64,000 nucleotides of DNA. Source: an uncultured Candidatus Rokubacteria bacterium (GTDB lineage: Bacteria > Methylomirabilota > Methylomirabilia > Rokubacteriales > CSP1-6). Numbering within the stretch: the stretch's first letter is position 1; each line of letters begins with the position of its first letter. Shown piece after piece: positions 17,827 to 34,497 of the stretch. A program made the translations under genes and the position numbers. The stretch lies in NCBI GenBank assembly GCA_963762145.1, contig CAVXJS010000011.1:1-64000 (forward strand), in the 5' to 3' direction. Below the pieces are notes generated by a model. The model did no database searches and was not told the origin of the DNA. It saw nothing but the letters and a program-made list of their open reading frames with translations.

Positions 17827-18831
17827 ATGCCGGATTCACGGATCGCGATCACGGGTGGGGCCGGGTATATCGGATCGCTCTTGACCGGAGAGTTGCTCCG
17901 GAGGGGTCACCAGGTGACGGTGCTGGACACGCTCCTGTTCGGAGGCGAGTCATTGCTCGCGCACCTGGCGCATCCGGGATTTGCGTTCCGCAAGGTCGAC
18001 GTGGCGGATCGGAAGAACTGATCTGGTGCCGCTCCTGGAGGGCAGCGAGATCGTTTTCCACCTGGCGGCGATCGTCGGGTTCCCGGCGTGCCAGCAGATC
18101 GGCGAGCAGGCCGCGTGGCACTACAACGTGGAGGCGACGCAGCGGGTGTTCCAGGCCGCCGAGACCGCCGGGGCGTCACGTCTCGTCTTCGCGTCGACCT
18201 ATAGCAACTACGGCATCGCCGAGGGTGGCGCGCCGGTCACGGAGACGAGCCCGCTGCGCCCGCAGTCGCTGTACGCGCGGACGAAGATCGCCTCGGAGGA
18301 GTATCTGCTCGAGCGAGGGCGCCGGTCGCCGGTAGCGGTCGTCATCCCGAGATTCGCCACGCTCTACGGCTCTCGCCGCGCACCCGGTTCGATCTCATCG
18401 TGAACCAGTTCGTACTGGAGGCGCTCACGAAGCGGAAGCTGGTCATCTACCAAGGTGACTACACCAGGTCGTTCATCCACGTGAGCGACGTGGTCGACGC
18501 CCTCATTCAGATGGCGGAGGCTCCTGCGGAGCGGGTCCGGAACGAGATCTTCAACGTCGCGGCCGCGAACGGTAACTACTCCAAGCTGGAGCTCGTGGAG
18601 CTCATCCGGAAGAACGTGCCCGTCGTCGAGATCGAGCATCGCGATCTGAGCTTCGGCGAGGACATGCGCGACGTGGCCGTCTCCTGCGAGAAGATCGGTC
18701 GCGTCTTAGGGTTCCGGGCTCGACGAGGGGTCGAGGACGGGATCGTCGAGATCCGGGACGCGATCGAGACTGGCCTGATCAAGGATCCATCGTCCGCGAA
18801 GTACCGCAACCACCAGTTCATCGTGAACTGA
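17827..18831 (+). CDS. NAD-dependent epimerase/dehydratase (frameshifted)
   Basis: ITGGAGYIGS, HLAAIVGFPAC, FASTYSNYG, YARTK (YxxxK), RFATLYG and RSFIHVSD. Confidence 0.85.
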
Positions 18832-18842
18832 AGGAGGCCCAC

Positions 18843-19789
<947 letters not shown>

Positions 19790-19793
<4 letters not shown>

Positions 19794-21072
19794 CAACAAC
19801 GTCACCCCTGCGGGTCTGCTTCTTCAACCGCTCGTACTATCCGGACCAGGCCGCCACCGGGCAGCTCCTCACCGAGCTGGCGGAGGATCTGGTCCGGGTG
19901 CACGGCTGCGAGGTCACGGTCGTGGCCGGGCCCGGCGCTGTCGACCCGCCGGGACCGGGGCGACGCCGCGCGGTGGCGGCCGGCTCTTCGAGCGGGAATG
20001 GCACAACGGCGTCGAGATCATCCGCGACGCGGGGCACGACGCTGCGCCCGCAGCGATTCGTCGGCGCGGGCCACGAACTACGTGAGCTACTTCCTCTCGG
20101 CGTGTCTGCGCCGGGCTGCGGCTGGGCCGCCCGGACGTCGTCGTCGCGCTGACCGATCCGCCGATCATCGGCCTGGCCGGCCATGCTCGCGGCGCGGCGC
20201 GGCCCGGCGCGCGGTTCGTCGTTCCTGTGCCAGGACATCTTCCCCGAGGTGGCGCGACTGCTCGAGGATTTCCAGAGCGAGACGGGTCAACGGGTCGCTC
20301 GAGCGGGTCAACCGCTACCTGGCTCGCGAAGGCGGACCGGGTGGTGGCGCTGGGCGAGACGATGCGCGAGCGGCTCGTCGAAGGGCAAGGGCGCCGACCC
20401 CGGCGAAGATCATCGGTCATCCACAACTGGGCGGACTGGCGAGCCATCGTCCCCGGGCCGAAGCGGAATGCCTTCTCGATCGCGCAACGGACTGGCCGAG
20501 ACACGTTCGTCGTCATGCATTCGGGGAACATCGGCCTGTCGCAGAGCTCGAGACGCTCGTGCACGCTGCCGCGCGGCTGAGCCGCGTATCCCGATATCGT
20601 GGTGGTCGTCGTCGGCGACGGGCGCAAGCGGGCCGGCCTTGGACGACTCGTGCGCGGGCGACTGAGGCTGGACAACGTGCGGTTTCTTGCCCTATCAGCC
20701 GAAGGAGCGGCTGAACGAGTCCTTCGCCACCGCCGATGTGTTCGTCGTCTCGCTCGAAGGCGGGCCTCGCCGGCTACATCGTGCCGAGCAAGCTCTATGG
20801 CATCCTGGCGGCCGGCCGGCCGTACGTGGCGGCGGTGGAGGAGGACTCCGAGGTGGACCGGGATCACCCGCGAAGTATGGCTGCGGCCTCCTCGCGCGAG
20901 CCCGGCGACCCGGGAGGACCTCGCCGAGCAAGATCCTCGCGCTGTATCGCGACCGGGCACGGGCGCGACGGCTCGGCGCCAATGCGCGGCGAGGCCGGCG
21001 CTCGAGTACGATCGGCCGCGGTCCAGATCCAGAGCGTACCACGAGCTGCTCCGTGCAGGCTGGCGCGACTGA
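19790..21072 (+). CDS. WcaI/WbuB-like GT4 glycosyltransferase (heavily frameshifted)
   Basis: FFNRSYYPDQAATGQLLTELAEDL, LCQDIFPE, VIHNWAD, HSGNIGLSQ and IVPSKLYGILAAGRP. Confidence 0.8.
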
Positions 21073-21109
21073 GAGCCGCATCGGGGCCGGCCGCTGGCGC
21101 CCGCCGCTC

Positions 21110-21716
21110 TTGAAGCGCCCGTTCGACGTGGTGCTGTCCGGAATCGGTCTGCTCGGCTCCGCTCCGCTCTGGGCGCTCATCGCGGCCGCCATCAAGCTCG
21201 AGGACGGCGGCGCGGTCTTCTTCCCGCAGGAGCGGGTCGGCCAGGGGGGGCGCCGGTTCAAGAGCTGGAAGTTCCGCTCGATGATCGAGGGCGCGGATGC
21301 CGAGCGTCGGCCCGCTGCAGGCCCGGGAGCGCGACCCGCGCATCACCCGCGTCGGCCGCCTGCTGCGCGCGACGGCGATGGACGAGCTGCCCCAGCTCTG
21401 GAACATCTTCCGGGGCGACATGAGCTTCGTGGGGCCGCGCGCGCTGCTGCCCGGAGGAGATCGAGGTGAGCGGAACGGGCGCGCGCGTGCCCATCGAGGC
21501 AGATCCCGGGCTACGAAGCGCGGCATCGCGTTCGGCCCGGCCTCACCGGCCTCGCGCAGATCTACGCCCCGCGGGACATTCCCGCGCCGGCACAAGTTCA
21601 AGCTCGACCGGCTCTACGTCAGGCGGCAGAGCTTCTGGCTCGATCTCAGGTTGATCGCGGTGTCCTTCTGGATCAGCTTCCGGGGGACCTGGGAGCGGCG
21701 GGGAGCGAAGTTTTGA
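21110..21716 (+). CDS. priming sugar (phosphoglycosyl) transferase, Bac_transf family (frameshifted)
   Basis: [65 protein letters not shown] and WLDLRLI. Confidence 0.88.
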
Positions 21717-22400
21717 GTGTGGCTCGCGCCCGCGAGAGGCCGGCGCTCCGACCGCGTGCTCACGTGGCCGCGGACCGCGCTGGTCGTGACGGTCTTGATC
21801 GCCGTGGTCGCGGCCTGCGTCGTCTGGGGGGTGAGGGGCCTCGGCGCCTGGCTGGTCGTGGAGGATCCGCTGGCGCCGGCGAAAGCGGTGGTGGCACTGG
21901 GAGGCGAGGTGCCGTTCCGAGCCATGGAGGCGGCATCGGTCTACCGCCAGGGATGGGCTTCGGAAGTCTGGCTCACGCGGCCGCCACAAGGCGCCGGGGA
22001 GGCCGCGTTGCATCAGCTCGGTATCCAGGTGCCCAGTGAGGACGCCTACAACCGTGCGGTGCTCGAGCGGCTGGGTGTCCCGGTCACGGCGATTCGAGTC
22101 CTGAGCCGGCCCGGGCAGAACACGGCCCAGGAGGTCCTGGTCATCGCGGAGGAGCTCCAACGAGCCGGTGGCGGGCAGGTGATTCTGGTCACGTCCAAGC
22201 CCCACAGCCGTCGGGTTCGAGCCACCTGGCGCGCGCTCATCGGCGAGCGCGCGATTGTCCGGTATGCAACGTCCGACCCCTACGATGCGCATCGCTGGTG
22301 GCGTCACACGGGCGACGCATTGGCAGTCTCGCGCGAGGTCTTCGGGCTCCTGAACGTGTGGGCGGGCTTTCCCGTCCGGCCGGCTCGCGCTGGGTTATGA
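21717..22400 (+). CDS. YdcF/DUF218 family protein
   Basis: N-terminal TM, AVVALGG, ERLGVP, QNTAQE, ILVTSKPHSRR and REVFG. Confidence 0.85.
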   Translation: MWLAPARGRRSDRVLTWPRTALVVTVLIAVVAACVVWGVRGLGAWLVVEDPLAPAKAVVALGGEVPFRAMEAASVYRQGWASEVWLTRPPQGAGEAALHQLGIQVPSEDAYNRAVLERLGVPVTAIRVLSRPGQNTAQEVLVIAEELQRAGGGQVILVTSKPHSRRVRATWRALIGERAIVRYATSDPYDAHRWWRHTGDALAVSREVFGLLNVWAGFPVRPARAGL

Positions 22401-22888
22401 TGCGCCGTACCACCATGAGGGCGTTGAGCCGCGGGCGAAAGATTCTCGGTTGCCTCGCAACCGACCGGGGGCTGCTGGTCTCCGCCCTCTGCCTGGTGTC
22501 AGCGATTCGGCTTGGACTCTGGGTCTTGCCCGTCCGGATGGTTGGCCGCGTCCTCGGCTGGGTGGTCTCTCGGAAGCCGGGAGTTGCCAGGGATCCGTCG
22601 CTTGCCGATCGGGTGGCGCGGGCCGTCACGCGGGCCGGTCGGGTGGTACCTGGTGCAACGTGTCTGACCCAGGCGCTGGCGACACAGGTGCTCCTCGAAC
22701 GGCACGGGCTCCCGACGCGGCTCCACATCGGGGTCGTCCGCGCCGGCGGGCAGGCAGTGCGCGGCCACGCCTGGGTGGAAACTCAGGGCGTGATCGTGAT
22801 CGGGGGAGCCATGTCCGGACAGTGGAGCACGTTGCTCACCGTCGAAGGGCCACGGGCGTGGTCCTCTTCCACTGGGCGGGCCTCGTGA
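22397..22888 (+). CDS. lasso peptide biosynthesis B2 protein (transglutaminase-like leader peptidase)
   Basis: ATCLTQALA (catalytic Cys), LHIGV and GHAWVE motifs; ATGA overlap with the ydcF stop. Confidence 0.9.
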   Translation: MMRRTTMRALSRGRKILGCLATDRGLLVSALCLVSAIRLGLWVLPVRMVGRVLGWVVSRKPGVARDPSLADRVARAVTRAGRVVPGATCLTQALATQVLLERHGLPTRLHIGVVRAGGQAVRGHAWVETQGVIVIGGAMSGQWSTLLTVEGPRAWSSSTGRAS

Positions 22889-23157
22889 TTCGGTCGAGTT
22901 TTCGACCGAGTCCGGATGCGATTGCCACGCGAGTCGGCGACGAGATCGTGCTGGTGGACCTCAGGACCGACCGGATCTACTCGCTGAACCGGACGGCGGC
23001 GCGCCTCTGGGAGCTCGTGGGCGCCGAGTGCGATCGGTCCGAGGTCGAGCGACGCATGCTGGAGGAATTCGACGTCACCCCGGACCAGCTCGCGGAGGCG
23101 ATCGACGAGTTCGTCCTGTCGATGACCCGGGACGGCCTGCTCTCGAGATCGGCATGA
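22885..23157 (+). CDS. PqqD-family RiPP recognition element (lasso B1)
   Basis: 90 aa: GDEIVLVDLRTDRIYSLNRTAARLWEL...EEFDV...IDEFVLSMTRDGLL; GTGA overlap with B2. Confidence 0.9.
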   Translation: MIRSSFRPSPDAIATRVGDEIVLVDLRTDRIYSLNRTAARLWELVGAECDRSEVERRMLEEFDVTPDQLAEAIDEFVLSMTRDGLLSRSA

Positions 23158-24941
23158 CGGACCCCTGGCTCCTGCGCTGGGACACCGCCCAGGATCAGCG
23201 GCCGACCGTCGTTCGCGCCGCGGACGTGGGCCGCTTTGGCCCGGGCTCGACGAGCTTCGTTGCATTCCAGGGGTACCTCTTCGACCGCGGTGAGCTGAGC
23301 ATCGGCCAGTCCGCGTCGGACGCGGGCCTCGTCGCATCGGCCTACGAGCGATGGCAGAGCGCCCTCTTCGACAAGCTGCGCGGGGGTTTCGCCCTGGCGA
23401 TCTGGGACGAGGAGCGCCAATGCGTGGTCGTTGGACGGGACGCCATGGGGCTGATCCCTTGCTTCTACTGGTGGAACGAGCGCATCCTCCTGGTGTCTCC
23501 GTCGCTCGACGCGCTCCTGGGCCAGCCGGAAGTGGACGCCCGTGTCAATCGGGCGCTCGTCGCGGAGTATCTGCAGAACATCCGGGGCTTCCAGCAGGTC
23601 CATGAGACCTTCTATGAGGACGTCCGGCGCCTGCCGCCCGCGCACTGGCTGTCCGTGAGTCGCGGGGCGCTGTCCCTGGCCCGCTACTGGGACCCGGTGC
23701 CGCCCGGCTTTGCCTGGGCGACCGAGGACGAGGTGTCCCGCTTCGCGGATGTCCTCGGCGCGGCGGTCGATCGTTGCCAGTCCGCCGGCGCGGACAGCCT
23801 GGCGCTGAGCGGCGGGTTCGACTCCGTGAGCATCGCGGTGGCGGCGGCTGCGCGCCGCCACGGGCGGCCCCCGCTGCACGCCGTGTCGCTGCGCTTCACC
23901 GATCCCTCCTGCGACGAAGGCCTGCGGCAGACCCAGGTCGCACAGGCTCTGGGGATGCCGCAGGTGATGCGGTCGCTCGACGAGTGCCTCGACGAGGACT
24001 CCTTCGTCGGCGAGCTCCGGGCCCTGTCCCGCGCATGCCCGGGCCCCGTCATGAGCGCGTGGCAGCCGATGTATGGCCGACTGCTGCGCGCGGCGGCCGA
24101 TCAGGGCCTCGGCCACCTGATGACGGGCGCCGGCGGGGACGAGATGTACTACGTGAATATGGGCTACGCGGCGGACTGTCTCGAGGCCTTCGACCTGCGC
24201 CGCCTCTGGCGCTTCTGTCAGGCCTGTCACGCGACGTGGCCGGGCATGCCGGTGCGAATCGCACGTTCAGTCCTCTGGGACGGGGCGATCAAGGGCGTGC
24301 TCAGGGAGCGGGCCCGCACACTGCTGTCTCCCGGGGCTCGCGAGCGGATCCGTACGCGACGGCTGAGGCGGGCGCGCCCGCCCTGGCTCGTGCCGGCCGA
24401 CGGGGGTCTCATCGCGAGGCTTGAGCGGCGGGCGGTCGAATCGCCCGCGGTGGAGATGGCCCCCGGTGAGGGCGCGTACGTGCGCGCCATGCGGCGTCTG
24501 CCACAGTCGCCGACCTTTTCGATGGAACTCGAACAGTCGCACGCGTGGACGGACCAGGTCGGATTCAGACTCCTGTACCCTTACTTCGATCGTGACCTGG
24601 TCGAGCTCTCCCTCCGCATGTCTCCTGAGCACCTGGTCGCGGGCGGGCGGGCCAAGGCGCCCCTGCGGCGACTGGTGGCAGAGCGGCTCCCGTCCGTGGC
24701 AATGCCCGCCCAGAAGGTGCTCTTCGGCCAATCGTTCGATCGCCTGTTCCGTCTCCATGGCCGGCGCGCGTGGACAGCGCTGGGTGGACCACGGGTGCTC
24801 AGCGAGTTGGGGATCGTCGATGCGCCGCAGGTTCGTGCCTTGATGGAGGAGTATTTCAGTGGTGTCGGCTCACGAAGCATGGAGGCCTGGCTGGTGCTGA
24901 GCACGGAACTCTGGCTCCAGGCCCGGTCTGACAGGCCCTAG
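23154..24941 (+). CDS. lasso peptide cyclase (C protein; asparagine-synthase-like, no N-terminal Cys)
   Basis: RDAMGLIP, RRLPPAH, LSGGFDS PP-loop, GAGGDE and YPYFDRDLVE. It lacks the MCG nucleophile and overlaps B1 by ATGA. Confidence 0.88.
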   Translation: MTDPWLLRWDTAQDQRPTVVRAADVGRFGPGSTSFVAFQGYLFDRGELSIGQSASDAGLVASAYERWQSALFDKLRGGFALAIWDEERQCVVVGRDAMGLIPCFYWWNERILLVSPSLDALLGQPEVDARVNRALVAEYLQNIRGFQQVHETFYEDVRRLPPAHWLSVSRGALSLARYWDPVPPGFAWATEDEVSRFADVLGAAVDRCQSAGADSLALSGGFDSVSIAVAAAARRHGRPPLHAVSLRFTDPSCDEGLRQTQVAQALGMPQVMRSLDECLDEDSFVGELRALSRACPGPVMSAWQPMYGRLLRAAADQGLGHLMTGAGGDEMYYVNMGYAADCLEAFDLRRLWRFCQACHATWPGMPVRIARSVLWDGAIKGVLRERARTLLSPGARERIRTRRLRRARPPWLVPADGGLIARLERRAVESPAVEMAPGEGAYVRAMRRLPQSPTFSMELEQSHAWTDQVGFRLLYPYFDRDLVELSLRMSPEHLVAGGRAKAPLRRLVAERLPSVAMPAQKVLFGQSFDRLFRLHGRRAWTALGGPRVLSELGIVDAPQVRALMEEYFSGVGSRSMEAWLVLSTELWLQARSDRP

Positions 24942-24964
24942 CGAGCGGAGGGAGGACGATCAGG

Positions 24965-25147
24965 ATGGGAAAGCCCGAAGAGAGATTTCCACAGGCCCAC
25001 CCGGAGGAGAAGTCGCCATGGGAGCGTCCCAGAGTGACGCTGGCCGGTACAGTCTCCTTGCTCGTGCGCGCCGGTAGCGCTCAGGGCAAGGGCGGTACCG
25101 AGCAGGACGGCGATATGAGTCAATTTCAGGCCCGGAGCAACCCCTGA
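24965..25147 (+). CDS. putative lasso-like RiPP precursor peptide (60 aa)
   Basis: Strong RBS (GGAGGGAGG). Leader motif W-E-R-P-R-V-x3-G, then the Gly/Asp-rich core-like tail AGSAQGKGGTEQDGDMSQFQARSNP. Lies between the cyclase and the kinase. Confidence 0.8.
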   Translation: MGKPEERFPQAHPEEKSPWERPRVTLAGTVSLLVRAGSAQGKGGTEQDGDMSQFQARSNP

Positions 25148-25184
25148 ACGAGCGGGGCCGCGCGAGGCGACGCCAGAGATCGGT

Positions 25185-26081
25185 GTGCTGAACCACACGA
25201 GAGCCAGGGCCGTGTCGGAAGACGGATCAGCGATCCCTGGGTTGATCCTCGTCGATCGCGTGCAGCCGACATCCGATTTGCTGGACCCGCTCGCCCCCGG
25301 TGTCGAGGTGTGCCACGACGCCAGGGGAGATCTGCTCGCCTACTGTCGCGCGGGGAACGGGACGCTTCGTGTGGACATCCCCGACCTGGCCTCGTTCTCC
25401 TACGAGCGCGGCACCGGCCACGTGAGGGCGATCCCCTATCGGCCGCTCTCGCCCGGCTTCATCCTGGAGACGTATCAGCATTGCGTGCTTCCCTTGATCC
25501 TGCCGGCGCTGGGCACTGAAGTCCTGCACGCGAGCGCCGTCGTCGGCGCTGCGGGTGTTGCCGCATTCTGCGGCCCGTCGGGAACCGGCAAGTCGACGAT
25601 TGCCGTCGCGCTGGCGCGTCGCGGGTATGCGCTCTGGGCCGATGATGCGGTCGCGATCGACACGGCCGAGCCCGAGCCGACGGCCATCCCGCTGCCGTTC
25701 ACGGTCCGGCTTCACTCCGACTCCGCCCGTTTCTTGGATGCCGCGTGCGAAGCGGGGACCTCTGTTGCGGCGGCCCCGCTCGACGCACAATCCGCTCCGC
25801 TCGCGGTGCTGTGCATGCTGCGGCGGACTCCGGACGCGACCGCCGCGGTGGCGGTCGAGCGGCTCGAGGCCGCCTCGACGTGTCAGGCGGCGCTGGCCCA
25901 CGCCTACTGCTTCAGCGTGAAGGACCTGGCGCAGAAGCGGCGCACGATCTGGAACTACCTGACGATGAGCGGACGGGTGTCGGCGTACGAGATTCGATTC
26001 CGCCCCGGGTTCGAGCGTCTCCCGGTCGTACTCGACGCCATCGAGGCGATCGTCGGCCGCGTACCGACCGACCCGAGATGA
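25185..26081 (+). CDS. HPr-kinase-like (lasso peptide-associated) kinase
   Basis: VLHASAV, Walker A GPSGTGKST and WADD motif, as in PadeK-type kinases. Confidence 0.85.
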   Translation: MLNHTRARAVSEDGSAIPGLILVDRVQPTSDLLDPLAPGVEVCHDARGDLLAYCRAGNGTLRVDIPDLASFSYERGTGHVRAIPYRPLSPGFILETYQHCVLPLILPALGTEVLHASAVVGAAGVAAFCGPSGTGKSTIAVALARRGYALWADDAVAIDTAEPEPTAIPLPFTVRLHSDSARFLDAACEAGTSVAAAPLDAQSAPLAVLCMLRRTPDATAAVAVERLEAASTCQAALAHAYCFSVKDLAQKRRTIWNYLTMSGRVSAYEIRFRPGFERLPVVLDAIEAIVGRVPTDPR

Positions 26082-27342
26082 CCGGAGCTATCAAGCCCGA
26101 AGACGGACTCTCGCCCGAGCTGGCATGTCTGTTGCTCCTCGTGCGGGGTGATCTGACCGCAGCGGACCAAGACCGTGCTCACGGGTTCCTAGAGCAGCCT
26201 CTCGCCTGGCAGGTCATCGTGCGATCGGCGTCCGAGCACGGAGTGTACCCGGCGGTTGCCCGGAATCTGAGGCGGCTCGGCTGGCCTCACGTCCCCGAGG
26301 CCTTCCGGAGCAACCTGGAGGCCGCCGCGCGCCTCAACGCCGCCCGGAATGCGCTGCTCGTCCGTGGCCTCGAGCAGATCCTCGGCCAATTCACCCGCGC
26401 TGCGGTCCCGGTGATCCCCCTCAAGGGGGTGGCGCTGGCCGAGTCGCTCCATGCTGACGTCGGCCTCCGGGTGTGCTCGGACCTGGACATTCTCGTGCCG
26501 CGCCGTGCGGTCGCGCAGGCCTTCGAACTGCTGCTGGCCGCCGGCTACGAGCAGACTGACCGGTTGCGCGTCGAGCCGCCGGACGTGGACTTCCTCGTGC
26601 GCAGCGCCATGGAGTATGGCTTCACTCCGCCGGTATCGGCCTTCCCCTACCTCCTCGAGCTTCACTGGGACATTGCCTGGCGCTGGCGAGGCGACACGGC
26701 GATGGTGGACGACCTGTGGGCCGAGGCGCGGCCGCAGCGCGTTCCGGGGAGTCGAGGCATGGACGCTGAGCCCCGAGTGGGAGCTGCTCTACCTCGCCGT
26801 GCACGCGGCCCGGCATCGCTGGCAGGGATTGAAGTGGCTCGTGGACATCCACGAGGTATGCATCGCGGGCGAAGTTCGACTGGGACACGGTGACGGACAA
26901 GGCGCATCGCTTCGGGCTCGAACGGGTGCTGGGCGTCAGCCTGAGCGTCTGCCAGGCGCTCTTCGGCACGCCGCTGCCGCCCGACTATTCCGGGCATCCG
27001 GTTCCGTCGTGGGTCCCCCTGTTCCCGGCATCGGCCCCGAGCATGGGCGAATGGCGAGAGGCCTTGCGGGCGCGGCGCCTGTTCCGGCGCCCGCAGGATC
27101 GGCTGCGCTATCTGGCGCGGATCGCGTTGCGTCCGACGCTGGGTGAGCTCGAGATGGTCCGGCTGCCGCCCGGCCTCCGGATGCTCTACTATCCGTTGCG
27201 TCTTCTTCGCCTGGGGATCGCAAGTGGTTGCGGGCTAGCGCGCGCCGCACTGCGGGCGAAATTGCTTGGGACCGTCATCGGGGGAGTCCATACTCTCACC
27301 TCGACCTATAGGCATCGGCCTTCGACTATAGGGAGGGACTGA
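26078..27342 (+). CDS. nucleotidyltransferase family protein (NTP_transf_5-like; frameshifts near 26745 and 26875)
   Basis: PLKGVALAE, RVCSDLDILV, LELHW and LLYLAVHAARH...LKWLVDI; ATGA overlap with the kinase. Confidence 0.85.
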
Positions 27343-27343
27343 T

Positions 27344-28532
27344 ATGCATCGGGTAGCGGTGAGACGTGTGGCTTCGGTCCTGCTGGGATGCCTGCTCGCC
27401 CTGGCTGCCATCGGCAGGCCGGCGCTGGCGCTGGACCTCGGCGAGTGGATCCCCGGGCTCAAGCTCAGCCCGTTCCTCAGCGAGCGGGTGGAGTACCAGA
27501 GCAACGTCTTCCAGGTTCCGAGTCACTCGCAGAGCGACGTGATCTTCAAGACCATTCCCGGCTTCCTGGCCGATTACACGTTCGGGCCCCACTCCGTGAC
27601 GCCGGCTACCGGGCCGAGATCCTGAACTACGTCGACCTCACTGACCAGAACACCGTCAACCATATCGCGGTCTTCTTGCTCCGGCTCGACTTTCCACGCC
27701 GCTGCTCACCCTGCGCGAGGACTTCGTGCACACCAGCGATCCGCCGGGGACGGAGCTGACCGGGGCCCGATGGAGAGCTCCACCAACACGCTGAGGCCCG
27801 AAGGGGAGTACCGGATCACATCGACCTTCTCACGGGAGTGAACTTCACGTGGACGCACGTGCGGTTCGACCAGGCATCCATTGGCAACCTCATCGACCGC
27901 GACGAGTACCGTCCCGGCGCGTCGGTATTCTGGAAGTTTACCCCGAAGGCGGATATCGGGCTCAACTACACCTACGGGCGGGTCATCTTCTCGGAGGCCA
28001 GACGACCGGAACTACACCGACAATCTCGTCTTCGTCGAGCCTGCGGGGAGACATCACGGCCAAGCTCTCCTCGACGTTGCGGGTGGGATACCTGATCCGC
28101 ACGCCCGACTCCAGCAGCCAGCCCGGCTGGAGTGGGTTGACCTTCGGGGGAGACACGACCTACAAGCCGACCGAGCGGACCACCATCACCCTGGCGACCC
28201 AGCGGGTTCCGCAGGAGTCGACATTCGGGACGGACCCGTTCTATGTCACGACGAACGCGAGCCTCTCGGTGACGCAACAGTTGCTCCCCAAGCTGAGCGT
28301 CAACGCCCGCCTCGGGGGCGGAGTCAACGACTACTCGACGAAGCAGACGACCGACGGGAGGACCGACTTCCGGCGGGACACCTTCATCCTGGCCGGTGCC
28401 GGCATCGACTACGACATCCAGCCGTGGCTGCGGGTCGGGCTCGAGTACCGGCGGACGAGCCGCGATTCCAACTTCCCTTCGTTTCGCTTCGTGGATGACC
28501 GCGTGAGCGGGCGGGCTACGGTGCAGTTCTAG
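27344..28532 (+). CDS. outer-membrane beta-barrel protein, EPS-locus type (frameshifted)
   Basis: Signal peptide, alternating beta-strands, YRRTSRDSN and a C-terminal Phe (ATVQF); upstream of wza. Confidence 0.75.
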
Positions 28533-28569
28533 CCCCCTCACCCTGCCCTCTCCCCGGAGGGGAGAGGGG
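28533..28569. repeat. REP-like GC-rich palindromic element
   Basis: CCCCCTCACCCTGCCCTCTCCCC-GGA-GGGGAGAGGGG with a perfect 10-bp stem, directly after a stop codon. There is one copy in the window. Confidence 0.55.
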
Positions 28570-28577
28570 TAGGCCGC

Positions 28578-28606
28578 TTGACAGCCGGTCGCCCCTCGCA
28601 TAAGCT
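28578..28606 (+). promoter_or_regulatory. putative sigma70 promoter of wza-wzc
   Basis: TTGACA-N17-TAAGCT, ending 25 nt before ATG 28632. Confidence 0.6.
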
Positions 28607-28631
28607 TCCGACACTACAGGTGAAAGTTCCG

Positions 28632-29486
28632 ATGGTCCGGCTTCTGCACAGCTCTCTATCATTCCCGGTTACCTTGGCGCTGGTGCTCTGCGTGGGCTCC
28701 CCGGCGTTGGGCCAGGAGTACACGATCGGGCCCCGCGACGTATTGGGGATCTCGGTATGGGGGCAGGCGGATCTGTCCCGGGATTACACGGTGGACCCGG
28801 ACGGTTTCATCCCGTTTCCGCTGGTCGGCCGTGTGAAGGCGGTGGGGTCGAACCCGAAGGAGCTGGCGGCGCAGCTGACCGAGCGCCTCGGGAAAGACTA
28901 CCTGGTCAACCCGCAGGTCATCGTATGGGTGAAGGAGTATCTCTCCCAGAAGGTCCAGGTGCTCGGGGCGGCGGAGAAACCAGGCGTCTACTATCTCAAT
29001 GGCCCGACGACGATGCTGGAGATCCTCTCGAAGGCGGGCGGGCTGGCGTCTACCGCCGGCAAGCAGGTCATTCTCCTCCGGAACCACGTCGCCTCCGCAG
29101 GCGGCGAGGTGAGCGCAAGCCCCATCCTGCGCATCAGCCTGGACAAGATGCAGGCGGGGGACCCGGCGGAGAACACCCGGGTGCAAAATCAGGACACCAT
29201 CATCGTGTCCAAGGCGCAGGCCCACTCGTATTTCGTCCTGGGCGAGGTCAAGAAGCCCGGCGGGTACACGCTCGAGAAGGAGACGAACATTCTGGAGGGG
29301 ATCACGATCGCGGGCGGCTTCACGGACAAGGCGGCGCCCAGCCGCATCCGTCTGCTCCGCTCGACCCCCGAGGGGCAGAAGGTCATCGAGGTCGACATGA
29401 ACGACATCCTCCGGCGCGGCCGCGAGGCGAAAGGCATCATGCTCCAGGAGAGCGATGTCGTGGTGGTGCCCGAGAGTTTTTTTTAG
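28632..29486 (+). CDS. polysaccharide export protein (Poly_export + 2 SLBB; Wza-like)
   Basis: YTIGPRDVLGISVWGQADLS, VDPDGFIPFPLVG, LVNPQV, GEVKKPG and AGGFT. Confidence 0.9.
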   Translation: MVRLLHSSLSFPVTLALVLCVGSPALGQEYTIGPRDVLGISVWGQADLSRDYTVDPDGFIPFPLVGRVKAVGSNPKELAAQLTERLGKDYLVNPQVIVWVKEYLSQKVQVLGAAEKPGVYYLNGPTTMLEILSKAGGLASTAGKQVILLRNHVASAGGEVSASPILRISLDKMQAGDPAENTRVQNQDTIIVSKAQAHSYFVLGEVKKPGGYTLEKETNILEGITIAGGFTDKAAPSRIRLLRSTPEGQKVIEVDMNDILRRGREAKGIMLQESDVVVVPESFF

Positions 29487-29528
29487 TGGTGGAGCCCAAG
29501 GTGAAGGATTTTGTCCCCAGATAGGCAC

Positions 29529-30893
29529 ATGATGCTCGAACGCGAGCCACAGCCACGGGCTGCCGATTATCGGCGCCTCCTGCGCAAGCACCGGTGGCTG
29601 ATGACCGGGGTCTTCCTCCTGACGGTGCTCACCGCCGCGATCTGGACCTTCGTCCAGGTGCCGATCTACGAGGCCGTGGCGACCATCCTCATCGACCCCG
29701 AGCCGCCGAGGGTGCTGAACATCCAGGACGTGGTCCCGATGGGTAGTGGGTTGTGGGACCGAAACTTCTACCCGACCCAGTACGAGATCATCCAGAGCCG
29801 GCCGGTGCGCGAGCGGGCCGCCGCGGTGCTGAGGGCTCGGAAGGGCTTGGCGGAAGGTGTAGCTGGCGAGCTGTCAGGGGCGATCACCGTCGAGCCCAAG
29901 CGGAATACGCGGCTGGTGCTGATCAAGATCGCTGGTCCCGATCCGGTGCTTTCGGCCGAGGAGGCCAACGCGGTCGCCAGTGCCTACGCGAGGTACAACG
30001 TCGAGCTCAAGCTCAAGGGGGCTCGGGACGCGCTCACGTGGCTGACGGAGGAGGCTGGGCGGCTCCGGGCGAAGGCCGAGGAATCCTCCCAGGCGCTGCA
30101 GAACTACCGGGTCAAGACCGGAATCCTCGGGATGCAGGAGCAGCGCCAGATCACGGCCGCGAAGATCATGGACTTCAACAAGGCCTTTCTGGAAGCCCAG
30201 GCCCAGCGGCTGTCCCTGGAGTCCAAGCTCCAGCAGCTGGATCGGATCGCCAAGGAACCGGCCGGCGTCCAGACGATCTTCACCGTGGCGGAAAATCCCC
30301 TTATCGACCGGCTGAAGGGCGAGGCGTCAACCCTCGAGACCGAGAAGTCCAAGCTCCTGAAGGTGTACAAGGATCAGCATCCGGAGATCCTGAAGGTCGA
30401 TGCACAGATCCTGCAGGTCAAGCAACGGCTCGAGGCGGAGTTTCAGAACACGCTTCGGGCCGTCCAGACTCAATACAAGGTGGCCAAGGGGCGTGAAGAC
30501 ACGCTCGCCAACCAGGTCAATCAGCTCCGTCAGGAAGGGCAGCAGCTGAACGAGAGGGAGATCCAGTACCAGAACCTCCAGCGCGAGGTCGAGTCCAACC
30601 AGGCCCTCTACGAGTCCGTGGTCAAGCGCATGAAGGAGACCGGGGTGGCCGGCGGTCTCGAGGACAGCAACGTGCGGATCATCGAGGCGGCCACGCCGCC
30701 CACCGTCCCGATCCGACCGCGACAGACCCGGAATCTGGTGGTGAGTATCGTGGCGGGGCTGATTCTCGCGTTCGGGGTGGCCTTCGCCCTCGAGTACCTC
30801 GACACCACCGTGAAGACTCCCGACGACGTGGAGCGCTATCTCGGCCTGTCGGTGATCGGGGTCGTCCCGGCGTTCCAGGCCAGGCGACGCTGA
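29529..30893 (+). CDS. GumC/Wzc-type polysaccharide co-polymerase (chain length determinant)
   Basis: Two TMs flanking a coiled coil, PIYEAVATILI, YKDQHP, NVRIIEAATPP..P and EYLDTTVKTPDDVERYLGLSVIGVVP. Confidence 0.9.
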   Translation: MMLEREPQPRAADYRRLLRKHRWLMTGVFLLTVLTAAIWTFVQVPIYEAVATILIDPEPPRVLNIQDVVPMGSGLWDRNFYPTQYEIIQSRPVRERAAAVLRARKGLAEGVAGELSGAITVEPKRNTRLVLIKIAGPDPVLSAEEANAVASAYARYNVELKLKGARDALTWLTEEAGRLRAKAEESSQALQNYRVKTGILGMQEQRQITAAKIMDFNKAFLEAQAQRLSLESKLQQLDRIAKEPAGVQTIFTVAENPLIDRLKGEASTLETEKSKLLKVYKDQHPEILKVDAQILQVKQRLEAEFQNTLRAVQTQYKVAKGREDTLANQVNQLRQEGQQLNEREIQYQNLQREVESNQALYESVVKRMKETGVAGGLEDSNVRIIEAATPPTVPIRPRQTRNLVVSIVAGLILAFGVAFALEYLDTTVKTPDDVERYLGLSVIGVVPAFQARRR

Positions 30894-32406: not shown

Positions 32407-34497
32407 TGGCATTCCGCGCTGACCGGCCCGCGCGGGCGGGTCTACCTGATCGCCACCGCGGTCATCGTGCTGGTGCTGGCCCTCTTTCTCTGGGCGCCCG
32501 ACTTCCTGCAGGCGGTGGAGGTGCGGCTCTACGACCTCCACTTCAAGCTGCGGGGCACCCAGCCGCAGACGGCGGAGCGCATCGTCATCGCCGCCATCGA
32601 CGAGAAGAGCCTGGCCGCGCTCGGTCGCTGGCCCTGGCCGCGCTCGCTCATGGCCGATCTCATCCGGAAGCTCTCGGCGGACGGCGCCAAGGTGATCGCG
32701 GTCGATATCCTGCTGAGCGAGCCGGAGGTGAGTGGCGAGCTCCGGGCGGCCGCGCAGCTCTCGGAGCGCCTCCGGACGCTGGGGCTCGCCGGGAGCTCCG
32801 CAGGGTCGGCGGTCCAGCGCGAGCTCGACGCCTACACGCGCGAGGCTGATCGCGACCGCCAGCTGGCCGAGGCCGTGCGCGACAGCGGCCGCGTGGTCCT
32901 GCCGATCGTGTTCGAGGTCGGGCCGGATCGGACCGGGCCGCCTCCCGAGCCGGCCGGCGCGGCCTTCAAGTCGGCCCTGGTAAGCTTCCGTCACTGCGAC
33001 GAGCGGGGAGTGTATCCGCCGCCGGCAGGCCGCAGCGCCACGCCTGCCCATCCCGCGTGCTCGCGGCGCGGCGCCAAGGACGCTCGGGCACGTGACGATG
33101 CTGGCCGACCGCGATGGCACGACGCGCTGGGAAGCGGTGGCCTTCGAGCACCAGGGCCACTACTATCCCTCGTTGGCGGTCCAGGCGGTGCGCCTCGCCA
33201 TGGCGGTGGAGCCGACACAGCTGACGCTCGACTTCGGCCGGAACCTCACGGTCGGATCGGTTTCTGTCCCGCTCGATCCCCGCGACCGGATGCTGATCAA
33301 CTACGCGGGGCCCGGGGGGACCTTCCGGCACCTGTCCGCGGTGGATCTGCTGACCGGGAAAGTGGCGCCGGATGCGGTGCGCGACCGCATCGTCTTCGTG
33401 GGGGCCACCGCGGCCGGGACGTACGATCTCCGCGTCACGCCCACGAGCCCGATCATGCCCGGAGTGGAGAAGCACGCCAACGTGGCGGCCAATATCCTGA
33501 CCGGGCAGTTCCTCCGGCGTCCGGACTGGGTGGAGCTCGTCGAGCTGGCCGGCATTCTGGTCTTCCCGCTGGTGCTCGCGTGGCTGCTGCCCCGGTTGCG
33601 GCCCGCGGTGAGCGTGGGCGCCGTGGCGCTCGTCTGGGTGATCCTCTTCGGCGCCGTGCATCTCGCGTTCCGCGGCGGGCTCTGGCTGCCCGTGGTGTAT
33701 CCGACGCTCGCTCTGGGACTCGACCTTCCTCGGGATCACGGTGTACCGTCTGCTCACCGAGGAGCGACAGCGCCTGTGGACGAAGCGCGCGTTCCAGCAG
33801 TTCGTCAGTCCGGAAGTCGTCGAGCAGCTCATGGACAATCCCGCCGCGCTGCAGTTCGGGGGCGAGATGCGGAACCTCACCGTGCTCTTCTCGGATATCC
33901 GCGACTTCACCCCCTACACGGAGCGCCACCCGCCCCACGAAGTGGTCCAGATGCTGCGGGAGTACCTCACGAAGATGGTGGACCAGGTCCTGGCCCAGCA
34001 GGGCACGCTCGACAAGTTCATCGGCGACGGGGTCATGGCGATCTTCGGGGCCCCGGTGCCGCTGCCCGATCACGCCGAGCGGGCGTGCCGGGCCGCGCTC
34101 GGCATGAACCGGGAGCTGGAGGCGCTCCAGGCCCGATGGGTCGCCGAGGGCCGGGAGCCCTTCAAGATCGGCATCGGGATCAACACCGGCGACATGATGG
34201 TCGGCAACCTCGGCTCGGAGCAGCTCTTCGATTACACGGTGGCCGGCGACGGGGTCAACGTCGGGGCCCGGGTGGAGTCGCTCAACAAGGAATACCAGAC
34301 CGAGACGTCCATCATCATCAGCGAGACGACGTACCTGGCGGCCCAGGACGTCCTGGACGTCCGGCGGCTCGGCGAGGCGACGGTCAAGGGCAAGACGCCG
34401 CCCTATCGTGGTCTACGAGCTGCGCGGGATCCGTGAGACAGTGGAGCGCGTGCCCATTCCGGCTCCCTTGACAAAGGAGCCAGCGAGGGCCTATTGA
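32406..34497 (+). CDS. CHASE2-domain adenylate cyclase (frameshifted)
   Basis: IDEKSLAALGRWPWPR, DRDGTTR, LINYAGP, PGVEKHAN, 3 TMs, LFSDIRDFT, LDKFIGDG, GINTG, DYTVAGDGVNVGAR and VVYEL. Confidence 0.88.

Follow-up and report, generated by a model that had tools for sequence, protein, structure and literature searches.

A kinase-associated family of lasso-type precursors without an acid at core positions 7-9, and a candidate lysine-anchored ring

The window analysed here, that is, the whole stretch of 64,000 nucleotides taken from contig CAVXJS010000011.1 of an uncultured Candidatus Rokubacteria bacterium (G+C 68.5%), carries at 24965..25147 of the + strand an open reading frame (ORF) of 60 codons (third-position G+C, GC3, 0.70), whose 60-residue translation reads as the precursor (A) of a lasso-type pathway. 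A Shine-Dalgarno-like sequence, GGAGGGAGGA, was read directly at 24947..24956 (+), placing a GGAGG-type ribosome-binding site about 9 nt upstream of the ATG. Translation, alignments and the parallel with the junction of BsfA, a known precursor discussed below, placed the leader M1-R35 at 24965..25069 (+), with W19 at position -17, P22 at -14, V24 at -12, G28 at -8, V34 at -2 and R35 at -1. The predicted core, A36-P60 plus the stop codon, occupies 25070..25147 (+) according to the translation and the family alignment, and its residues S38, K42, D48 and D50 are encoded on the + strand at 25076-25078, 25088-25090, 25106-25108 and 25112-25114, respectively. An earlier prediction made from the letters of the window alone (hereafter, the original prediction) held that W19, P22, V24 and G28 keep the YxxPxLxxxG spacing of lasso leaders with Val34 in the place of Thr(-2), and that a cut after R35 leaves acids only at core positions 11 (E46), 13 (D48) and 15 (D50). 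Both statements were borne out by the translation: counted from A36, positions 7-9 hold no acid, and the peptide ends in Pro (...SNP). Lasso rings are still described as having 7-9 residues in the review and methods literature up to 2026 (PMC10368454 and the sections of PMC13352647 drawn on here). As judged from sequence comparisons, the pathway is Bsf-like, kinase- and nucleotidyltransferase-associated and lasso-type, its whole precursor family fails the 7-9 rule, and the ring of its product is probably of an undescribed type.

The precursor gene lies in a compact operon ordered B2, B1, C, A, K and N, all on the + strand. B2 (22298..22888, start codon uncertain) is a transglutaminase-like leader peptidase (Pfam Transglut_core3, 74.7 bits, E 7.6e-21) and B1 (22885..23157) a PqqD-type leader-binding protein, or RiPP (a peptide made on ribosomes and modified after translation) recognition element (RRE; Pfam PqqD, 49.4 bits, E 5.6e-13), whose orthologue in locus L001 has 92 aa. 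C (23154..24941, 595 aa) is an Asn-synthetase-like putative macrolactam (isopeptide) synthetase (Pfam Asn_synthase, E 2.4e-31, plus GATase_7), K (25185..26081, start codon uncertain) an HPr-kinase-like peptide kinase (Pfam Hpr_kinase_C, E 1.4e-5, under the gathering score; NCBIfam HprK_rel_A, 25 bits, under its cutoff), and N (26078..27342) an NTP_transf_5 nucleotidyltransferase that is spread over three frames in the window (two successive frames matched Pfam NTP_transf_5, with E 4e-36 for profile positions 3-173 and E 4e-9 for 168-211). Four-base overlaps were found at B2/B1, where the B2 stop overlaps the GTG start of B1 as GTGA, at B1/C, where the TGA stop of B1 overlaps the ATG of C, and at K/N, where the ATG of N overlaps the K stop as ATGA; B2-B1-C-A-K-N is translationally coupled. 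The top NCBIfam match of C was NF033535 (lasso peptide isopeptide bond-forming cyclase), with 151 bits against a cutoff of 525, and a generic asparagine synthase family followed little below with 129 bits; C has the SGGFDS motif, lacks an N-terminal Cys, and its public relatives carry only the name asparagine synthase-related. All eight motif residues of the known peptide kinase BsfK are present in K at identical spacing, compared by eye (H, G+15, G+18, G+20, K+21, S+22, D+38 and D+39). In B2, Cys122 and His157 are conserved in a three-sequence alignment. The catalytic triad would be expected to be completed by an Asp past the conserved His; relatives in L001 and L022 have one 15-16 residues past that His, and B2 has Met172 (22811-22813) at this place. 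As a soil-metagenome contig (X1) showed only two listed differences from the window over 22300-23417, both outside B2, Met172 is apparently not an assembly error. No ABC exporter was found in the operon, no clostripain-like transpeptidase was found among the operon and flanking ORFs scanned with Pfam (part of the window's ORFs), and a search of PDB sequences returned no solved lasso cyclase or peptide kinase near enough to use. The flanks, 18400-22400 and 27344-30893, form a PEP-CTERM/exopolysaccharide (EPS)-type locus with a sugar transferase, DUF218, an EpsL-like barrel, Poly_export and Wzz/GNVR genes, the NCBIfam scores of which were all under the curated cutoffs.

Although searches of NCBIfam and Pfam returned no family assignment for the peptide itself, homologues were readily found in protein sets. 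All 12 candidates retrieved from a set of 5.8 billion proteins were precursor homologues (E <= 4.7e-11), and in the resulting alignment of 13 sequences W19, E20, P22, L26, G28, T29, L32-R35, G37-A39, G41, K42, D48-D50 and F54 were invariant. The alignment that had been proposed as a check on V(-2), GK and D-G-D thus gave a clear answer, with V34, G41, K42 and D48-G49-D50 identical in 13/13. E46, by contrast with these residues, was found in only 3 of the 13 close homologues and is also unconserved in the wider family, and the nine-residue S38-E46 ring advanced by the original prediction was rejected on this ground. Its other three proposals, a G41-D48 ring after a shifted cut, a large ring and an isopeptide from the Lys42 side chain, stay in contention. 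The C-termini vary among the homologues. Most of the close ones (P0009 and P0011-P0017) have a longer C-terminus containing two Cys (C-x6-8-C), so that their tails may hold a disulfide; the window peptide (tail 25128-25144), P0006-P0008 and P0010 end earlier and have no Cys.

Matches to C at E <= 1e-30 were obtained in 15 of the 251 genomes searched. Four Dormibacterota genomes hold C orthologues with 82, 52, 52 and 39% identity, the remaining matches lying at about 30%, and a related precursor is encoded directly downstream of each of the four, in which the B2-B1-C-A-K-N arrangement as such is conserved. The precursor stood between cyclase and kinase in all five Dormibacterota loci with a strong match, and K, N and EPS genes were also present in the three loci long enough to read. 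Ordinary precursors occur in other Dormibacterota genomes (L028, L034, L040 and L041, read by eye), with Y(-17), T(-2) and an Asp or Glu at core position 8 or 9. Since these obey the 7-9 rule, counting from the canonical cut works in this phylum and the family studied here stands apart. More generally, the weak matches to the leader alone (L028, L030-L037 and L040-L047) came from further precursors of lasso type that have Y(-17) and T(-2) and, in part, D or E at position 8 or 9; in L031 and L037 the acid falls at position 10 unless the cut is moved by two residues (by eye). Several tandem copies of lasso-type precursors were seen in genome G064, and in genome G228 a second AsnB-like asparagine synthase (L022:4276-6630, - strand; Asn_synthase 287 bits, full GATase) adjoins N.

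We then considered the wider family. A profile built from 15 precursors gave 102 matches at E <= 1e-3 against 1.84 billion representative sequences. Five long matches were dropped, three as low-complexity or repeat sequences (P0018, P0085 and P0103) and two as ORF calls running into a family precursor (P0034 and P0100), and after addition of the close homologues and removal of duplicates 109 distinct peptides remained, the positions of which were counted with the leader W as -17. Taxon labels in this set are weak, consisting of two names (Dormibacteraeota and Methylomirabilota) and weak Atlas labels (Acidobacteriota and Myxococcota). The leader end was strongly constrained: G(-8) was present in 108 of the 109 peptides, position -2 was V in 82, L in 13, I in 12, T in 1 and R in 1 (V/I/L in 107), position -1 was R in 57, Q in 30 and H in 10 (97 together), and position +1 was G in 54, A in 40 and another residue in 15 (G/A in 94; Q, T or V in 11). 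An acid was found at core positions 7, 8 and 9 in just 6%, 6% and 8% of the peptides, so that its absence, with positions counted from the predicted cut, is a family trait. A lysine was present in 106/109, at core position 3 (n=3), 4 (n=34), 5 (n=43) or 7 (n=26), and was never replaced by R; the three peptides without it are apparently truncated or frame-broken. Relative to this lysine, an acid lies at K+6 in 65% and at K+7 in 35% of the peptides, which covers 106/106, and the same acid lies at 10, 11, 12 or 13 from the cut site. A second conserved acid is found at K+8 (59%) or K+10 (37%). In terms of core positions, the conserved acids are 10 and 12 in the core-4 K group, 12 (sometimes 11) and 15 (sometimes 13) in the core-5 K group, and 13 and 15 in the core-7 K group, which includes the window peptide and has S/T at core 3 in 92% of its 26 members. 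Among the 103 peptides of the core-4, core-5 and core-7 K groups, K is preceded by Gly in 85, by Pro in 7 and by Glu in 2. K42, D48 and D50 are conserved family-wide.

The gene neighbourhood was examined on a larger scale for K5, the subfamily with K at core 5 and the largest one. A degenerate DNA pattern yielded at least 120 metagenome stretches, 80 of which were examined as loci; 42 held a precursor matching the family profile and 38 were chance matches without one. As the pattern selects GGGGK-x6-DPGE and thus preselects K and D, the 42 loci were used for gene neighbourhood only. C was found upstream on the same strand in all 12 loci with at least 1900 bp upstream, B1 in all 12 with at least 2400 bp upstream, and K in 14 of the 16 with at least 1000 bp downstream; C or K was present in 41 of the 42. 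Pfam searches of the ORFs of seven long loci gave Asn_synthase in 7, NTP_transf_5 in 4, Transglut_core3 in 3 and ABC-transporter domains in 3, in contexts that were mixed and not uniformly EPS. One K5 locus has two Transglut_core3 (B2-like) genes (L076:1374-1868 and L076:6717-7229).

The precursor ORF is a real gene and not a chance ORF, given its GGAGG site, its homologues, the matches to the family profile and the conserved place between cyclase and kinase; no better precursor was present in the other reading frames over 24900-25260. Contigs from four soil-metagenome runs belonging to three studies (X1, X3, X4 and X9) were compared with the window over 22300-27400; no RNA data set was listed as matching the stretch. 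X9 had no depth over the precursor ORF, and in X1, X3 and X4 the ORF showed no indel and a single substitution, 25137 G>A (S58N). The closest-matching run may be the source sample of the window itself, and the runs of a second study agree. V34 and the core are thus not sequencing errors, an eventuality that the original prediction had named as one that would undo it. The neighbouring genes do hold frame breaks, two of them proven to be extra bases (see below), and this is what might be said for taking the ORF as fortuitous or its core as spoiled by misassembly; set against the clean contigs, the homologues, the profile matches and the preserved synteny, an artefact of either kind has a negligible probability and was rejected.

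The closest described system is that of Bradymonas sediminis (bsfA, B1, B2, C, D, K, N; Duan et al. 2023, PMC10368454), in which BsfA has Ile(-2), BsfB1 and BsfB2 cut BsfA in vitro at the canonical site, and BsfK phosphorylates core Ser3 on the BsfA precursor. The window operon shares with it the split B1/B2, the Asn-synthetase-like C, an NTP_transf_5 gene and an HprK-like kinase in which the eight motif residues and the intervals between them agree, as well as a leader with an aromatic residue at -17, P at -14, an aliphatic residue at -12, a beta-branched aliphatic one at -2 and Arg at -1. The likeness extends into the core, with a small residue at +1 and a Ser at core 3, the proven phospho-site of BsfA and a predicted one here (S38). 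BsfA, which we translated by eye from the gene printed in PMC10368454, has an I-R/G-x-S junction (the slash marks the cut), Asp8 and no core Lys, whereas the first conserved acid of the window peptide is at 13, with a Lys six residues before it. The predicted Gly1-Asp8 ring of BsfA has no counterpart here, as core position 8 is not acidic; moreover, the window operon lies inside an EPS locus, no ABC exporter was found in it, and the host phylum differs. Ile/Val(-2) recurs in kinase-encoding lasso clusters of Acidobacteriaceae and Sphingomonadales (PMC10368454), whose precursors may already include cores with such a lysine, and the combination of Ile/Val(-2) with an H-G-G-G-K-S-D-D kinase recurs in V34 and the K of the window. 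Because such leaders have been published for kinase-associated clusters, the absence of Thr(-2) is not new. The assertion that the precursor breaks the lasso rules consequently stands for the missing acid, family-wide, and falls for the missing Thr.

Other known systems resemble the operon less closely. Paeninodin, ThcoK and pseudomycoidin systems also have an HPr-kinase-like kinase and a nucleotidyltransferase beside the lasso machinery, and the parts of PMC13381572 available report phospho-lasso clusters of this type in polysaccharide loci of Bacilli, comparable to the EPS locus here; their phospho-acceptor, however, is a C-terminal Ser, whereas the window peptide ends in Pro, has Val for Thr(-2) and lacks an acid at core 7-9. 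Clusters for linear polyphosphorylated peptides (LPP; Popov et al. 2026), likewise placed in polysaccharide loci of Bacilli in those parts of PMC13381572, have in common with the window an RRE, an HprK-like kinase, an NTP-transferase and a leader-bearing peptide, but are described there as having no cyclase and a SipW-like peptidase, in contrast to the C and B2 of the window. The class V lasso peptides (lariocidin B and gelatinamin A), in the excerpts of PMC13178200 used here, have a Lys side-chain isopeptide in a lasso-type peptide, and counting the window core from G41 would give a superficially similar X-K...D-G; their Lys, however, joins the C-terminus after a normal residue 1-Asp8 ring, through a separate clostripain-like transpeptidase. 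The window shows the lasso-class features of a [Y/W]xxPx[L/V/I] leader, whose binding is predicted, a PqqD-type RRE and a transglutaminase-like peptidase, and lacks Thr(-2) and an acid at core 7-9 from the canonical cut, the latter being attained only if the cut is moved to between Q40 and G41. In the limited collection of papers searched for larger or non-canonical lasso rings and for Dormibacterota lasso peptides, no account of this architecture was found.

Lys42 and D48 form a conserved pair, and the comparative data move the weight towards them. We tentatively favour, at less than even chances, a product joined by an isopeptide between the Lys42 side chain and Asp48. In such a pathway B1 would bind the leader motif W19-x-x-P22-x-V24, and the HPr-kinase-like enzyme would phosphorylate a core Ser on the uncut precursor, most likely Ser38 (core 3) by analogy with BsfA. 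B2 would then cut canonically after V34-R35, freeing A36; the V-R/A-x-S junction is homologous to the I-R/G-x-S of BsfA, and because of this homology cleavage after R35 is likely and Ser38 is supported as the phospho-site. C would adenylate the Asp48 side chain and close the isopeptide on the epsilon-amine of Lys42 (K-x5-D) and not on the N-terminal alpha-amine, and N might further decorate the phospho-Ser stub. The predicted product would have a stub, A36-G41, with phospho-Ser, a seven-residue Lys-anchored ring, K42-D48, and a tail, G49-P60; to our knowledge, a Lys-anchored ring with a free phosphorylated stub is a topology recorded for no RiPP. The parts of this scheme that we infer are the cut site, on the strength of its likeness to BsfA, the place of phosphorylation and, most of all, which amine acts as nucleophile. 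Extended to the whole family, the proposal would be that lasso-cyclase homologues of several phyla close a ring from an internal Lys (K-x5/6-D) instead of the N-terminal amine, a generalization we regard as rather doubtful, and the corresponding product, equally doubtful, would be a peptide of lasso or branched-cyclic form whose N-terminal stub is free, phosphorylated and perhaps also glycosylated, its genes being set into EPS loci in Dormibacterota.

The Lys42-Asp48 reading was ranked first because the acid is fixed relative to Lys and found at four distances from the cut, and because the ring-atom counts are canonical: by our own count, which is an estimate, K-x5-D and K-x6-D rings would have 26 and 29 atoms, equal to canonical eight- and nine-residue Glu rings, against 31-40 atoms for alpha-amine rings of 10-13 residues. 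It would also be in keeping with the operon synteny, the association seen in the K5 loci, the cut-site pattern, the Lys-acid spacing and the low tolerance of lasso rings to changes in size, and Q, T or V at +1 in 11/109 would be odd for a ring-forming first residue. Several observations nonetheless weigh against it. We know of no lasso cyclase that uses a Lys side chain. The invariant Lys may instead be a kinase recognition element or be needed for target binding, and S/T is found at K+1 or K+2 in 88% of the core-4 and core-5 K groups. G/A at +1 and the stub length fixed per subfamily would fit an alpha-amine ring too, a Lys42-Asp48 model assigns no function to D50, the other conserved acid, and in B2 a Met replaces the putative triad Asp of two relatives. 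The transpeptidase needed for the class V Lys isopeptide, as given in the excerpts of PMC13178200, was not among the ORFs scanned. As for the statistics, K and D were already part of the family profile, so that the counts are somewhat biased, and the K-acid spacing rests on about five related architectures, (4,10), (4,11), (5,11), (5,12) and (7,13), and not on 106 independent events.

Lasso cyclases have been shown to close rings on the alpha-amine and in no other way, and a large ring of this kind, in which B2 cuts after R35 and C joins the alpha-amine of A36 to Asp48 (13 residues) or Asp50 (15), is a rival reading that we consider unlikely on balance. Sister subfamilies would then have rings of 10-12 residues, Lys42 and the Gly-rich segment would lie inside the ring, and a bulky phosphorylated or glycosylated residue might lock the tail. 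The canonical cut-site pattern with G/A at +1 in 94/109, a stub that is Gly-rich and of fixed length in each subfamily, like a ring segment, and the retention of B2 in the Dormibacterota loci, consistent with a need to free the alpha-amine, all fit this reading. It would nevertheless demand four ring sizes (10, 11, 12 and 13) in one family, where 7-9 are known and a change by one residue strongly cuts production (2026 review, in the sections of PMC13352647 drawn on); rings of 31-40 atoms would be unlikely to trap a tail sterically, and the model would leave unexplained why the Lys is invariant and keeps a constant spacing to the acid. A ring of textbook size is recovered if B2 cleaves between Q40 and G41, giving a normal eight-residue G41-Asp48 ring with Lys at position 2, and rings of 8 (K+6) or 9 (K+7) residues in the sisters. 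G41 and D48 are invariant in the close homologues, Gly precedes K in 85/103 peptides, the resulting X1-K2...D8-G9 resembles the class V cores described in the excerpts of PMC13178200, a cut moved by two residues is suggested by L031 and L037, and other authors, cited in PMC10368454, have predicted precursors with Ala(-2). We consider such a shift quite improbable, however: it would leave without a role the near-invariant [VIL]-[RQH]/[GA] junction at W+15..W+17, the equivalent of which is the proven cut of BsfA, spread the distance from the W motif to the cut over -19, -20 and -22, turn position -2 into Gly or Ala, make Pro (7/103) or Glu (2/103) the implausible first residue of some rings, and lose with the leader the conserved Ser38, although the equivalent Ser3 is the core phospho-site of BsfA.

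C may also do something else altogether, an outcome we hold improbable. Two isopeptides might form, from the alpha-amine and from Lys42 onto D48 and D50; C might amidate or conjugate the acids; or the product might be linear and phosphorylated, like that of the cyclase-less LPP clusters, and perhaps linked to the exopolysaccharide made by the surrounding genes. The conservation of two acids, K+6/7 and K+8 or K+10, would suit such chemistries, as would the low score of C against the lasso-cyclase model, scarcely above that of a generic asparagine synthase, the location of all the Dormibacterota copies in EPS loci, the polysaccharide context of the phospho-lasso and LPP clusters of Bacilli in the parts of PMC13381572 available, and the fact that the mature Bsf lasso was never obtained, its G1-D8 ring being a prediction (PMC10368454). 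On the other hand, C is always found beside the precursor, B1 and K, as in lasso clusters, and the long K5 loci are not uniformly EPS, three of the seven having ABC-transporter genes. In AsnB-type enzymes, the supply of ammonia from glutamine needs the N-terminal Cys; lacking it, C cannot provide ammonia in this way, which also counts against this reading.

Lasso genome-mining tools and training sets depend on Thr(-2) and on an acid at core 7-9, and as both rules fail here, a family of more than 100 clusters at 50% identity is likely to be missed or mis-split. If the ring proved to be Lys-anchored, or to have 10-13 residues, the scope of lasso cyclases would widen and a new scaffold for peptide engineering would become available. 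The constant pairing of the precursors with a peptide kinase and a nucleotidyltransferase, and in Dormibacterota with EPS genes, points away from the usual antibiotic role and towards another function, and the BsfA-type pathway, with its missing mature product, is part of the same problem.

With regard to the genes around the precursor, the frame breaks of N could be traced to the window itself. The contigs lack one base at 26737 (X1, X3, X9 and X4) and another at 26864 (X1, X3 and X4), and these deletions fit the walk of the N frame in the window, 2->0->1; the breaks are thus extra bases specific to the window, N being intact in the contigs compared. Further frame-split regions were seen at 18400-19793, 20687-21716, 27344-28532 and 32467-34436, the split genes of the window comprising NTP_transf_5, Epimerase, Bac_transf, the EpsL-like barrel and CHASE2/guanylate cyclase. 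The assembly looks indel-prone, and its completeness figure of 88% may have been lowered by this. Finally, at 25218, near the N-terminus of the kinase, three bases of the window are absent from the X1, X3 and X4 contigs, an in-frame difference.

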